Shown here: positions 24,301-31,203 of the stretch, piece after piece | Layout: each line of letters opens with the position of its first letter | Numbering within the stretch: the stretch's first letter is position 1 | Origin: Escherichia coli | GTDB taxonomy: Bacteria; Pseudomonadota; Gammaproteobacteria; Enterobacterales; Enterobacteriaceae | NCBI RefSeq assembly: GCF_044324875.1 | Contig: NZ_CP172185.1 | Direction: 5' to 3' (one strand) | DNA length: 64,000 nucleotides | Notes under the pieces: generated by a model | Seen by the model: the letters and a program-made list of their open reading frames with translations, nothing else | Database searches by the model: none | Told to the model about the DNA's origin: nothing | Program-made: the position numbers and the translations under genes

Positions 24301-26023
24301 TTTACTGACGCTGTTGACAATCAACTTTATCGTCGTCACCAAAGGGGCCGAGCGTATTTCCGAGGTTTCTGCCCGCTTTACCTTAGACGCGATGCCTGGC
24401 AAACAGATGGCGATTGACGCCGATCTTAACGCCGGGTTGATCAACCAGGCGCAGGCGCAAACCCGGCGCAAAGATGTTGCCAGCGAGGCCGATTTCTACG
24501 GCGCGATGGACGGGGCATCGAAGTTTGTGCGCGGGGATGCCATCGCCGGGATGATGATTCTGGCGATCAACCTGATCGGCGGCGTCTGTATCGGGATCTT
24601 CAAATACAACCTGAGCGCCGACGCCGCCTTCCAGCAGTATGTACTGATGACCATCGGCGACGGGCTGGTGGCGCAGATCCCTTCTCTGCTGCTCTCCACC
24701 GCAGCGGCGATTATCGTCACCCGCGTCAGCGACAACGGCGATATCGCCCATGATGTGCGCCACCAGCTGCTGGCAAGCCCGTCGGTGCTCTACACCGCCA
24801 CCGGGATCATGTTTGTGCTGGCGGTTGTGCCGGGGATGCCGCATCTGCCGTTTTTGCTGTTCAGCGCCCTGCTTGGTTTTACCGGCTGGCGGATGAGCAA
24901 ACGCCCGCAGGCGGCGGAGGCGGAAGAGAAAAGCCTCGAAACACTGACCCGAACCATCACCGAAACCAGCGAGCAACAGGTCAGTTGGGAAACTATTCCG
25001 CTGATCGAGCCCATCAGCTTAAGCCTCGGCTACAAGCTGGTGGCGCTGGTGGACAAAGCACAGGGTAACCCGCTCACCCAGCGGATTCGCGGCGTGCGGC
25101 AGGTGATTTCTGACGGCAACGGCGTGCTGCTGCCGGAGATCCGCATTCGGGAAAACTTCCGCCTCAAGCCCAGCCAGTACGCCATTTTCATCAATGGCAT
25201 TAAGGCTGATGAAGCGGATATTCCGGCGGATAAACTGATGGCCCTGCCCTCCAGCGAAACCTACGGCGAGATTGACGGCGTGCTGGGGAACGACCCGGCG
25301 TACGGGATGCCGGTGACCTGGATCCAGCCCGCGCAGAAAGCGAAGGCGCTGAATATGGGGTATCAGGTGATCGACAGCGCCAGCGTGATTGCCACCCATG
25401 TGAACAAGATTGTCCGCAGCTATATTCCTGATTTGTTTAACTATGATGACATCACGCAGTTGCATAACCGTTTGTCGTCGATGGCACCGCGCCTGGCGGA
25501 AGATTTGAGCGCGGCGCTCAATTACAGCCAATTGCTGAAAGTGTACCGGGCGCTGCTGACCGAAGGCGTTTCCCTGCGCGATATTGTCACCATCGCCACC
25601 GTGCTGGTCGCCAGTAGCACAGTGACCAAAGATCATATCCTGCTGGCGGCCGATGTGCGCCTGGCATTGCGGCGCAGCATTACCCATCCGTTCGTTCGCA
25701 AGCAGGAGCTGACGGTGTATACGCTGAATAATGAGCTGGAAAATCTGCTCACCAACGTGGTGAATCAGGCGCAACAGGGCGGGAAAGTGATGCTCGACAG
25801 CGTGCCGGTTGACCCGAATATGCTCAACCAGTTCCAGAGTACGATGCCGCAGGTGAAGGAGCAGATGAAAGCAGCGGGGAAAGCCCCTGTGCTGCTGGTG
25901 CCGCCGCAGCTGCGTCCTTTGCTGGCGCGTTATGCAAGGTTGTTTGCGCCGGGTCTGCATGTGCTGTCGTATAACGAAGTGCCGGATGAGCTGGAGTTGA
26001 AGATTATGGGGGCGTTGAGTTGA
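24300..26023 (+). pseudogene. lfhA: 5'-truncated FlhA-like flagellar export gate gene (Flag-2 remnant)
   Basis: Translation enters within the FlhA core (NFIVVTKGAERISEVSARFTLDAMPGKQMAIDADLNAGLI) and runs through the cytoplasmic domain; N-terminal TM region missing; 5' boundary approximate. Confidence 0.7.
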
Positions 26024-26029
26024 TGGCCT

Positions 26030-26350
26030 TTGGGGCGAATCCGGCATCGGTGCACAATTGCCGGATGCGGCGTGAACGCCTTATCCGGCCTACCGATCCG
26101 GCACAAGTTTGTAGGCATGATAAGACGCGTCAGCGTCGCATCAGGCATCTGCGCACAATTGCCGGATGCGGTGTGAACGCCTTATCCAGCCCACCGATCC
26201 GGCACAGGTTTGTAGGCATGATAAGACGCGCCAGCGTCGCATCAGGCACCGGTGCACAATTGCCGGATGCGGTGTGAACGCCTTATCCGGCCCACCGATC
26301 CGGCACAAGTTTGTAGGCATGATAAGACGCGCCTGCGTCGCATCAGGCAT
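26030..26350. repeat. BIME cluster: three tandem ~105-bp units each carrying two REP palindromes
   Basis: Repeated gccggatgcggcgtgaacgccttatccggcc and gtaggcatgataagacgcg.cagcgtcgcatcaggca units seen three times. Confidence 0.8.
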
Positions 26351-26360
26351 CCGCGCACAA

Positions 26361-26858
26361 TTATAAAATAATACGCTCCCCGGCACTAAAATCCGTTATG
26401 TCTCCCGCCCAATCAATGGGATATAACCCTCGCGCTACATCGCGATGGAACGTTGAGAATGGCCAATCACTCACCTGCTTTACCCAGCCATGTTTCACTG
26501 GATTTATATAAATATAATCAACATGATGGCGATAATCTTTTGTATTGCGAATGGCATGCTCCCAAAAACGCGGTTGCCAGATATTTTTCAATCCGCAAGC
26601 ATGGGTGAACTGCTTTTTAATCTCCCGCCAGCGAGAGGAAAAATCATCATCGCTTTCGGGTAATGTCCAGATACAGTGCATATGCTCTGGCAAAACTACC
26701 CAGGCGTTAATTTCAAAAGGTCTGGCCTGCTTAACTTTAATAATGGCGTTACGGAGTGTCTGGTACTGGGTGGTCAAAAGTTGGCTTCGACGATTCCGTA
26801 AATTTACCGTGAAAAACCATGTTCCCCCCTTGATGTAATAACGACGATATTCAGACAT
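26361..26858 (-). CDS. rayT: REP-associated tyrosine transposase (IS200/IS605 HuH family)
   Basis: 165-aa ORF MSEYRRYYIKGGTWFFTVNL... with HuH motif (LPEHMHCIW) and REP clusters on both flanks. Confidence 0.85.
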   Translation of the reverse strand: MSEYRRYYIKGGTWFFTVNLRNRRSQLLTTQYQTLRNAIIKVKQARPFEINAWVVLPEHMHCIWTLPESDDDFSSRWREIKKQFTHACGLKNIWQPRFWEHAIRNTKDYRHHVDYIYINPVKHGWVKQVSDWPFSTFHRDVARGLYPIDWAGDITDFSAGERIIL

Positions 26859-26939
26859 GGCGACTCCTTTTTCTCAACGATAAGAAGAAAAGGAAAAGTC
26901 GACAATGAAGTTGTGTTATATCGGGAAAGCAGCTCGCAA

Positions 26940-27030
26940 AAAATTCGCAGACTCGTAGGCATGATAAGACGCGGCAGCGTCGCATCAGGCATCGGTGCAC
27001 TATTGCCGGATGCGGCGTGAACGCCTTATC
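26940..27030. repeat. REP/BIME element upstream of rayT
   Basis: gtaggcatgataagacgcggcagcgtcgcatcaggcat...gccggatgcggcgtgaacgccttatccgtcctac. Confidence 0.7.
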
Positions 27031-27034
27031 CGTC

Positions 27035-27793
27035 CTACAAAATCGTCTCTTCCGTCAAAATCCTGCGCGCGCCTAAAAAATGATCCTGCCAGAAAGGTTC
27101 AGCTAACCGACTTACCCGAATGGTTTCCCCGGTGCGCGGCGACTCGATAAACTGACCGTCTCCCAGATACACGCCCATATGATCGGCAATCTCACGGCTG
27201 TGAATATGGAAAAACAGCAAATCTCCCCGGCGCAGGTCGTTATTCGCCACAATCGTTGCCCGATGGTAGTGATACATCTCATTGGCCGTGCGCGGGAGCT
27301 TCGCCTCGAGGATCTTGTTGTAGGCATAAAAAACCAACCCGCTACAGTCGAAGCCTTGATCGGGCCGCGTGCCGCCCCAGACGTAAGGCTTACCAAGCTG
27401 CTGCTCCAGGCGGTGAATCGCCACTTCGGTGATGTTGTGCAGATGGTCGCTGCTTAAGAAATGGTTGTTCTCCGCCAGCGCCTGCCAGCGTCTGTCACTC
27501 GCCTTGAGCGGCGCAGGAAACCATTCTGGATGCTGTTTTATCTGTTCGCGGTTGTGCTGGCGCAGCGCCTTTCTGCTTTCGGCATTGCCTTCCACAATAT
27601 AGCTGGCCTGTTTTTTCAGATGGGTTTGGTACTGTTTTAATAAACGCGCACGGTTTTGCATCCGCTGGCGGGCGGCGTAGCTGAAAGAGATATGTGATGT
27701 GGTGGCGCTGGCGAGTAAAGGGAGCAAAACGCATAACGAAAACACGCCTGGATGCAGAAATCTGCCGTGAAAGAACGAAGACATGAAGGACAT
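27035..27793 (-). CDS. yafL: NlpC/P60-family peptidoglycan endopeptidase lipoprotein
   Basis: 252-aa ORF with signal peptide and NlpC/P60 catalytic region (YVWGG...GFDCSGLV...HMGVYLG). Confidence 0.85.
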   Translation of the reverse strand: MSFMSSFFHGRFLHPGVFSLCVLLPLLASATTSHISFSYAARQRMQNRARLLKQYQTHLKKQASYIVEGNAESRKALRQHNREQIKQHPEWFPAPLKASDRRWQALAENNHFLSSDHLHNITEVAIHRLEQQLGKPYVWGGTRPDQGFDCSGLVFYAYNKILEAKLPRTANEMYHYHRATIVANNDLRRGDLLFFHIHSREIADHMGVYLGDGQFIESPRTGETIRVSRLAEPFWQDHFLGARRILTEETIL

Positions 27794-28084
27794 AAACCGG
27801 CTGAATGAAGGGGAGAATTTTAAAAGACCGGAGGAGTAAGCGGGATTATTAATTGCTTATTTGCATATTACTATTGAGGTTTCATAATCTTAGGAAATAA
27901 ATGATACATGCGCTTTTCGGACTAATGAAAACTGCCCCTGTGCTAAATTTGTAAACCCTGCGCCGACAGGCTTGCGTAAAACTCTTTTGGTGATAATGTG
28001 AGCCTTCCAAATCCAGACTATTCCGATTTGGGATCCATTTTGCCGTCCTGGCGTGTGTAACCGTTTTATCAAGGAATAAGCAGT

Positions 28085-28825
28085 ATGCGTAAAATCGCAT
28101 TAATTCTTGCGATGTTGTTGATCCCGTGCGTTTCGTTTGCCGGTTTGCTGGGCAGCAGTAGCTCGACCACGCCAGTGAGCAAAGAGTATAAGCAGCAGTT
28201 GATGGGATCCCCTGTCTACATCCAGATCTTCAAGGAAGAACGTACGCTCGATCTCTACGTCAAAATGGGCGAGCAATATCAACTGCTCGACAGCTATAAA
28301 ATCTGTAAATATTCCGGCGGCTTAGGACCAAAACAGCGTCAGGGCGATTTCAAAAGCCCGGAAGGGTTTTATAGCGTCCAGCGTAATCAGTTAAAACCAG
28401 ACAGCCGTTACTACAAAGCGATTAATATTGGATTCCCCAATGCCTATGACCGTGCGCATGGTTATGAAGGGAAATACCTGATGATCCACGGCGATTGTGT
28501 TTCCATCGGCTGCTACGCGATGACCAATCAGGGTATTGATGAGATCTTCCAGTTCGTTACTGGTGCGCTGGTGTTTGGTCAGCCGAGCGTGCAAGTGAGT
28601 ATTTACCCGTTCCGTATGACCGACGCTAATATGAAGCGCCATAAGTATTCCAACTTTAAGGACTTCTGGGAGCAACTGAAACCGGGCTACGACTACTTTG
28701 AGCAAACCCGTAAGCCACCGACCGTTTCTGTGGTCAATGGCCGTTACGTGGTCAGCAAGCCGTTAAGCCACGAAGTTGTGCAACCACAGCTGGCATCAAA
28801 CTACACGCTCCCCGAGGCAAAATAA
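28085..28825 (+). CDS. yafK: YkuD-fold L,D-transpeptidase-like periplasmic protein
   Basis: 246-aa ORF with signal peptide and YkuD catalytic motif ([18 protein letters not shown]). Confidence 0.85.
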
Positions 28826-29563
28826 GCGCCATTCGCCTGGCATAATCTTTTGCCAGGTTTCATTGCCCGTCAGCGGCTGTGTCGCAATCACCGTGACCAC
28901 ATCATTAGGTGTGGTCTGCGAGCTGAAGTCGATTTCCACATCCTGATCCAGCAACGTTGCCACGCCAAACGGCGCGCGGCGGGTGATCCAGTGTAAATTA
29001 GTCGAGCAATACGCCATTACATAGCGCCCGTCTGAAAGCAGCATGTTGAAAACGCCCTTCTGCCGCAGTTCATCCGCCAGTGAGGCGATATATTTAAACA
29101 CTGCCGCCATGTTGCCCGGTGTGCGCGGGTAACGCTGCGTTAATTTATGCAGGAGCCAGCAAAAGGCTTTTTCGCTATCGGTTTCACCGACCGGGCGGAA
29201 GTTGCCGGTTTCCAGTGATTTGTAGCCCGTCAGTTGCCCGTTATGGGCATAAGTCCAGTTGCGTCCCCATAACTCGCGGGTAAACGGGTGAGTATTTTCC
29301 AGCGCCACCTCGCCCCGATTGGCCTGCCGAATATGAGCCACAACCGAACAGGATTTTATCGGGTAGTCCTGGACAAGTTTGGCGATGGGGGAATTAAAGC
29401 TGGGTTGTGGATCTTTAAATGTGCGACAGCCTTTACCTTCGTAAAAGGTGATGCCCCAGCCATCTTTATGTGGCCCGGTTCCACCACCACGCTGTACAAG
29501 CCCGGTGAAACTAAAGCAGATATCGGTAGGGACGTTGGCGCTCATCCCGAGCAATTCGCACAT
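28796..29563 (-). CDS. yafJ: Class II glutamine amidotransferase-like protein
   Basis: ORF with N-terminal [10 protein letters not shown] (Cys2 nucleophile context); start taken at that Met. Confidence 0.85.
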
Positions 29564-29609
29564 GGGTAACCTCCACAACAGCGGGAGCGCATGGCCCCCG
29601 GCGAAGATT

Positions 29610-29745
29610 GATTTAAGTATTTTCAGGTCGGATGCGGCGTAAACGCATTATTCGGCCTACGGTTCGGGTACAGATTTGTAGGCATGATAAGACGCGTCAG
29701 CGTCGCATCAGGCATCAGCGCACAAATGCCGGATGCGGCGTAAAC
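29610..29745. repeat. REP/BIME elements, the distal one split by the IS insertion
   Basis: gtcggatgcggcgtaaacgcattattcggcctac ... gtaggcatgataagacgcgtcagcgtcgcatcaggcat ... gccggatgcggcgtaaac; the other half-REP (aacgccttatccggcctac) resumes at 31178. Confidence 0.7.
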
Positions 29746-30500
<755 letters not shown>

Positions 30501-30604
30501 ATCAGCATACTTGTCCTTAGCCTTCTGCAGTGACAGCTGGTAGTACAGCGTGCTTCTGGCCAGCCCTGCAGCCTTTAACAGGTCAGACTGGCAGTGTCCG
30601 CACC

Positions 30605-31135
30605 TCAGGCTCCGGATGACTTTCGTTTTTTCTCCAGCTCCTGGCGCTTTTTTTCCAGGAGATGCTCCTGCATGGCTTTCAGATATGCATTTTCTGCGCG
30701 AAGATAACGCAGCTCATTCTTCATCTCTTCCGGCGTCATGTTTGCCTCGTTTTCATGGGTATCATCAGAACGGGTCATGCTTTTCTCCTTCCAGCGCCTG
30801 ATAAAGGCCTCATTACCAGATTTGCGGTAGCCTTTTATCCAGTTTTTAACCGTGTTGTGGCTGGGAATGTTAAACCGGGCAGCTACCCGGGGTAGAGACT
30901 CAGAATGCCCGAGAGCATAAAGAACCACGCAAAGTTTATCTTCAGGAGAATAGCTACGCTTGTGTCTGCAATCCAGTGCCCGAGGACCGTGAAGAAGAAA
31001 AAGATTAATCCAGTGTGAGAGGCTGGTGTGAGAAAGTTGAAAGAGTTTTGCCGTAGAAATGATGCCTGCATGACCGGCCAGGTAGTGATTTACAGCGGCA
31101 AGTTTTACTTCAAATGAATGTTTCATAAACTGCAC
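30605..31135 (-). CDS. IS3-family transposase OrfA (HTH plus leucine zipper)
   Basis: 176-aa ORF upstream of and out of frame with OrfB, typical of IS3 programmed frameshift architecture. Confidence 0.7.
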   Translation of the reverse strand: MQFMKHSFEVKLAAVNHYLAGHAGIISTAKLFQLSHTSLSHWINLFLLHGPRALDCRHKRSYSPEDKLCVVLYALGHSESLPRVAARFNIPSHNTVKNWIKGYRKSGNEAFIRRWKEKSMTRSDDTHENEANMTPEEMKNELRYLRAENAYLKAMQEHLLEKKRQELEKKRKSSGA

Positions 31136-31203
31136 CTTCAGATGTCAGATTATGTCCAACATTTGGGGTGCAGTTCAAACGCCTTATCCGGCCTACGCCA
31201 GAC

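Follow-up and report, generated by a model that had tools for sequence, protein, structure and literature searches.

In the Escherichia coli strain analyzed here, the dinJ-yafQ toxin-antitoxin pair is missing between yafL and yafK. Comparison with other genomes makes it very probable that the interval between these two genes is native and was never occupied, that the cassette entered only part of the species, and that the K-12 type represents a replacement of the native sequence. The unoccupied dinJ-yafQ site is an ordinary, already described polymorphism of E. coli.

In the window, i.e. the whole 64-kb stretch of DNA that was analyzed, the genes are arranged in the order dinB-yafN-yafO-yafP, the lafU/lfhA remnant of the Flag-2 cluster, REP arrays, rayT and yafL, followed beyond the gap by yafK (dpaA), yafJ, an insertion sequence, lpcA (gmhA) and fadE. 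The distance of about 290 bp between yafL and yafK given in the first-pass annotation is exactly 291 bp (27794..28084) when it is counted from the longest yafL ORF; the RefSeq start of yafL is Met4 at 27784, which results in a gap of 300 bp, and strains 118UI and M00057 are annotated in this way. The yafK product scored 428 bits against the DpaA/YafK equivalog model (cut-off 365). The features relevant to the analysis are:

21682..22080, minus strand: yafO pseudogene, codon 66 GAA in K-12 changed to TAA, stop at 21883-21885
22083..22376: yafN antitoxin gene, upstream of yafO, intact
27035..27793, minus strand: yafL, NlpC/P60 (C40) peptidase, longest ORF; signal-peptide codons at 27714-27793 of the type native to Escherichia rather than the K-12 type
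27714..27944, unstranded: allele-specific segment of 231 bp, comprising the yafL signal-peptide codons and yafL-proximal intergenic DNA
27794..28084, unstranded: yafL-yafK divergent intergenic region, 291 bp from the longest yafL ORF
27860..27888, plus strand: sigma-70 promoter-like site from a consensus scan, TTTGCA-17 nt-CATAAT, facing dpaA
27944..27945, unstranded: right-hand polymorphism boundary, where the end of the K-12 cassette (18 bp past the yafQ stop) abuts
27945..28084, plus strand: yafK-proximal intergenic DNA common to both alleles, 100% identity to K-12
28085..28825, plus strand: yafK (dpaA), peptidoglycan meso-diaminopimelic acid protein amidase, intact

Several neighboring elements were recorded along with this locus. 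Arrays of REP/BIME elements flank rayT and follow yafJ (26018-26378, 26958-27035 and 29681-29755), and three of their matches to the Rfam family naRNA4 lie above the gathering score. An IS1397 copy (IS3 family, orfA/orfB with a frameshift; 29746-31176) is inserted in a REP element between yafJ and lpcA (gmhA) with about 4 bp duplicated at its junction; an insertion at this site was apparently found in only two genomes of the collection (NRZ14408 and LT599825) and is absent in M00057 and 118UI. An RtcB-family RNA ligase gene and prfH are intact in the window (19279-21041; ORFs of 383 and 232 aa), and both are truncated pseudogenes in K-12. The segment 23554-26023 contains a Flag-2 remnant as in K-12, consisting of lafU and an N-terminally truncated flhA-like gene. 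In 118UI and also in NRZ14408, the strains with the closest yafL-yafK allele, an intact Flag-2 cluster lies next to it, indicating that loss of the Flag-2 cluster and the empty toxin-antitoxin site occur independently of each other. In Nissle 1917 (phylogroup B2) rayT is lacking between the lfhA remnant and yafL, but it is present in the window, K-12, CE10 and O157.

The first-pass annotation had seen no frame resembling DinJ or YafQ between yafL and yafK, and this absence was borne out by nucleotide, protein and motif tests. When K-12 DinJ, a RelB/DinJ-family antitoxin of ~86 aa, was searched against the 64-kb window by tblastn, the best match had an E value of 6.2 and no DinJ-like ORF was found in the interval. 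Likewise, the best match of K-12 YafQ, a RelE/ParE-fold toxin of ~92 aa, lay elsewhere in the window (E=0.3), and there was none in 27794-28084. The ORFs of the interval, of 60 and 72 aa, are confined to the minus strand and matched no NCBIfam family, and the larger one is interrupted by an 11-bp indel in other strains. The LexA box (CTG-N10-CAG) and the dinJ operator palindrome (GCTCA..TGAGC), which can both be recognized in K-12, are absent from both strands of the interval. In addition, an Rfam scan of positions 26000-30000 at permissive thresholds gave no match in the interval, and the REP-derived naRNA4 was detected outside it only. The first-pass annotation was correct in placing dinJ-yafQ between yafK and yafL in K-12, the actual order being yafL - dinJ - yafQ - dpaA (yafK), with 209 bp between yafL and dinJ and 155 bp between yafQ and dpaA.

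Alignment to K-12 demonstrated that the flanks of the two loci are near-identical up to window position 27713 and again from 27945, and that between these boundaries (27713/27714 and 27944/27945) the window contains 231 bp compared to 840 bp in K-12, the latter comprising a different yafL 5' end, the 209-bp spacer, dinJ, yafQ and 18 bp. Comparison of the two segments by blastn with a word size of 7 and by global alignment against dinucleotide shuffles revealed similarity in the shared flanks only. On the left, the boundary falls within yafL, where the signal-peptide codons end and the shared ASATTSH follows, and the replacement extends ~24-27 codons into the gene, YafL beginning with MSSFFHGRFLHPGVFSLCVLLPLL in the window and with MSLPSIPSFVLSGLLLICLPFSSF in K-12. 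When examined as possible diverged homologues, the two signal peptides were of equal length and had M1, S2, F9, G13 and C18 in common, and the ungapped nucleotide identity of their codons was 42% versus 36 +/- 5% in the null comparison (p about 0.15). Since the 231-bp and 840-bp segments have no detectable similarity and the boundary is located inside yafL, the two alleles are related by replacement rather than by simple insertion or deletion. The presence/absence difference implied by the first-pass annotation thus holds for the toxin-antitoxin pair, which is absent, but not for the alleles as a whole, which differ by a replacement of 231 bp versus 840 bp reaching into yafL. Inspection of the K-12 alignment by eye did not reveal signatures of a transposon, an integrase or a target duplication at the junctions.

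A third version of the yafL 5' region, also lacking dinJ-yafQ, was observed in strain BS-01 (L087:1350-1778). It contains the 14-mer CAACAGTAATCCCG, which is otherwise confined to the signal-peptide codons of the K-12 type, and may represent a recombinant or a noisy assembly. Outside the replaced segment, the divergence between K-12 and the window is 6-10% over yafL and rayT and 0-4% over the first ~1 kb on the dpaA side. A haplotype block in yafL/rayT linked to the cassette was considered and rejected, because a wider comparison showed rapid evolution of the yafL core in every strain and no grouping according to the cassette. As the yafL core is not sorted by cassette presence, the alleles have been shuffled by recombination.

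The origin of the unoccupied allele was examined in the yafK neighborhoods of 80 species-level lineages, each represented by one genome per species. A yafL gene adjoins yafK without DinJ/YafQ in E. albertii, in Escherichia sp. E1V33 and in the record SCPM-O-B-8794, as well as in ten Citrobacter loci and one Phytobacter locus. The whole interval of the window is collinear with those of E. albertii, E1V33 and SCPM-O-B-8794, with a mean column identity of 89% and only small indels, and its yafK-proximal part (27945..28084) is 93-98% identical in other Escherichia species. Bit scores of the region upstream of yafL were between 281 and 392 within the set formed by the window and these outgroups, compared to about 18-24 against the K-12 type. 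Similarly, the YafL N-terminus of the window, MSSFFHGRFLHPGVFSLCVLLPLLASA, resembles those of E. albertii and E1V33, and the Citrobacter N-termini have the -LSLCV- core of the window type, none of them being of the K-12 type. The K-12-type N-terminus, MSLPSIPSFVLSGLLLICLPFSSFASA, was found in K-12-type alleles only. One non-coli Escherichia record, MOD1-EC7003, has such an allele; the identity to K-12 is 96.9% in its 840-bp segment but only 89% in its yafL core, which suggests that the K-12-type allele was acquired by recombination. Since deletion from a K-12-like locus could not produce the collinearity with the outgroups, the empty site is ancestral. The question raised in the first-pass annotation, whether this is an ancestral empty site or a deletion, therefore resolves in favor of the former. 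The window allele does contain a small derived deletion in its ancestral-type spacer, because 11 bp that are missing at about 27897 (alignment columns 255-265) are present in the B2 strains and in all three Escherichia outgroups.

Within E. coli, the unoccupied allele, represented by the 231-bp segment, was present in 2,084 of 5,426 complete genomes (about 38%) and the dinJ-yafQ allele, represented by the K-12 segment, in 3,340, the two together covering all but two of the genomes. Carriers of the unoccupied allele include Nissle 1917, ST131, O25:H4 strains and the 'Seattle 1946' strain, whose version of the segment has about 92% identity to the window and the extra 11 bp. The closest allele is that of strain 118UI (99.6-99.9% identity, 99.9% over 1.9 kb, with an identical DpaA protein), which belongs to ST69 and phylogroup D (PMC8900328). 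The loci of 118UI, M00057, Nissle 1917 and ST131 have the same gene order and the same unoccupied type of intergenic allele as the window, and M00057 is collinear with the window without gaps at 99.1% identity over 18.9 kb. In line with these results, yafQ-dinJ has been reported to occur in every genome of the E/B1/A lineage and to be restricted to phylogroup F among the genomes of the F/G/B2 lineage, and phylogroup D has been reported to lack the pair (PMC6896753). As a discovery the empty site has little weight, because published work already documents that dinJ-yafQ is missing in phylogroups D, G and B2, and the allele is present in public genomes with the same annotation. In cassette-bearing strains yafQ was sometimes found to be broken with dinJ intact, yafQ being frameshifted in O157:H7 Rafaela_II (L091:2044-2320) and carrying an internal stop in ETEC1720 (L092:2044-2313). 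Such decay, in which the toxin is lost first, is the usual course.

Had dinJ-yafQ been deleted de novo from a K-12-like locus, the shorter interval would be explained, but nothing else speaks in favor of this. Such an event cannot create 231 bp that are absent from K-12 yet collinear with E. albertii and other Escherichia, and it would have had to leave behind none of the K-12-type yafL 5' end, spacer, operator or LexA box, so that we consider it hardly conceivable. A collapse of the region by an assembly or sequencing artefact can be given just as little credence in view of the identical structure in 2,084 complete genomes and the gap-free collinearity with M00057. It is also unlikely, although not to the same extreme degree, that an ancestor of this strain carried dinJ-yafQ here and that the lineage secondarily regained the empty allele by homologous recombination with DNA of a strain in which the site was empty. 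Recombination at the locus is indicated by the occurrence of the cassette allele on several yafL backgrounds, and the yafL core of the window is closer to that of CE10, a phylogroup F strain with the cassette (96.9% identity), than to that of Nissle 1917, a B2 strain with the empty site (94.8%), the value for K-12 being 93.8%. However, the CE10 pattern is equally well explained by a gain of the cassette in phylogroup F. Moreover, the reported lack of the pair in phylogroup D (PMC6896753) argues against a secondary loss, and the ~8% divergence and 11-bp indel separating the 231-bp segment from the B2 version mark it as old and not as a recent import from B2.

According to the favored interpretation, that of a native site, the 291-bp interval would be the never-occupied yafL-dpaA divergent intergenic region of Escherichia, and the unoccupied allele of this strain would be the type of phylogroups D, B2 and G. 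The dinJ-yafQ pair, presumably a mobile toxin-antitoxin cassette with plasmid-borne relatives, would have entered the yafL-dpaA site in only part of E. coli, namely phylogroups E, B1, A and F as judged from the literature. In K-12-type strains, ~221 bp of a highly diverged yafL 5' region together with the 619-bp cassette would then have replaced the native sequence. The replacement probably took this direction and occurred by homologous recombination with a diverged donor. Plasmid relatives of YafQ with 78-81% amino-acid identity are encoded on Yersinia pestis pYC and on ~40-kb plasmids of Klebsiella, Enterobacter and Citrobacter, and nucleotide homology to these plasmid cassettes is restricted to positions 2432-3016 of the K-12 locus, from the operator to yafQ. 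The remaining left 221 bp of the K-12 allele (L001:2211-2431), which are close in length to the 231 bp of the window, consist of yafL codons 1-24 and the yafL-proximal spacer. Outside of K-12-type alleles, the sole similarity of these 221 bp was to the yafL-yafK spacer of Citrobacter amalonaticus S646 (L021:3682-3729; 48 nt, 81%, z=8 versus dinucleotide shuffles). A protein search with the first 59 aa of K-12 YafL did not find a donor of the K-12-type yafL 5' end and returned only nine fragments, and all of those with a source name came from Escherichia or Shigella. We infer that the source of the K-12 allele may have been a diverged enterobacterial yafL locus in which the cassette was already present, and that the allele entered by homologous recombination; the crossovers would then have been located in the conserved part of yafL coding for the mature protein and in the likewise conserved spacer beside dpaA.

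Judging from the consensus scan and from sequence conservation, the interval probably functions as a divergent promoter region for yafL and dpaA. Both hexamers of the promoter-like site facing dpaA are located within a block (about 27843-27900) that is conserved across Escherichia species, the 17-nt spacer between them being variable, and this block upstream of dpaA is not part of the K-12 allele. In K-12, no promoter is known between yafQ and yafK, and yafK is probably co-transcribed with the toxin-antitoxin pair (PMC5120126). It is conceivable, albeit doubtful, that the 840-bp replacement provided YafL with a new signal peptide and promoter from the diverged locus and perhaps placed dpaA under the SOS- and DinJ-regulated dinJ promoter. 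If this were the case, two cell-wall enzymes could be expressed or exported differently in phylogroups that carry the cassette and in those that do not, and what has been ascribed to the deletion of dinJ-yafQ in K-12 could in part reflect polarity on dpaA. Since both the 5' end of yafL and the sequence ahead of dpaA are exchanged in the K-12 allele, studies in which the dinJ-yafQ locus is deleted or compared should watch for effects on the peptidoglycan enzymes encoded by yafL and dpaA; the same concern has been raised on other grounds (PMC5120126). In addition, because K-12 is derived at this locus, conclusions on the physiology of dinJ-yafQ are not transferable to about 38% of sequenced E. 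coli.

The yafO nonsense allele pointed out in the first-pass annotation was recovered in the comparison with K-12 as a change of Glu66 to a stop codon at base 21885, and the window has no intact 132-aa YafO ORF, codon 66 being TAA; the yafP gene is intact. At the sequence level, this neighborhood does lack two type II toxins as had been claimed, one through the absence of dinJ-yafQ and the other through the premature stop in yafO. The exact 51-mer around the yafO stop is present in 140 of the 5,426 genomes, including 118UI. M00057 shares the Flag-2 remnant of the window as well as the internal stop in yafO, which is annotated as a pseudogene in RefSeq. Since both 118UI and M00057 also have the empty site, public annotated genomes in which an empty dinJ-yafQ site coincides with a broken yafO already exist.

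The K-12 yafL-dinJ-yafQ-dpaA locus resembles that of the window in its flanking genes and in the 140 bp upstream of dpaA, which are 100% identical, and differs from it in the presence of dinJ, yafQ, the operator and the LexA box as well as in the yafL-proximal spacer and the YafL signal peptide. The B2 strains share the unoccupied site with the window, but their 231-bp segment is about 8% diverged from it and contains the extra 11 bp that are also present in the outgroups. In the literature covered, we found no earlier description of the replacement of the yafL signal-peptide codons and the dpaA-upstream region. Chromosomal toxin-antitoxin pairs are known as patchy, horizontally acquired inserts between core genes (PMC7167474, PMC5120126). 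An uneven distribution of the K-12 pairs over the E. coli phylogroups (PMC7167474, citing Fiedoruk et al., 2015) and a horizontal gain of such cassettes between core genes (PMC5120126, citing Ramisetty and Santhosh, 2016) are described. Likewise, yafNO in dinB-yafP and mazEF in relA-mazG are cassettes located between core genes in some phylogroups, and their sites without the cassette are undisturbed operons (PMC7167474). Unlike these two systems, the occupied dinJ-yafQ allele in addition replaces the 5' end of the neighboring gene.
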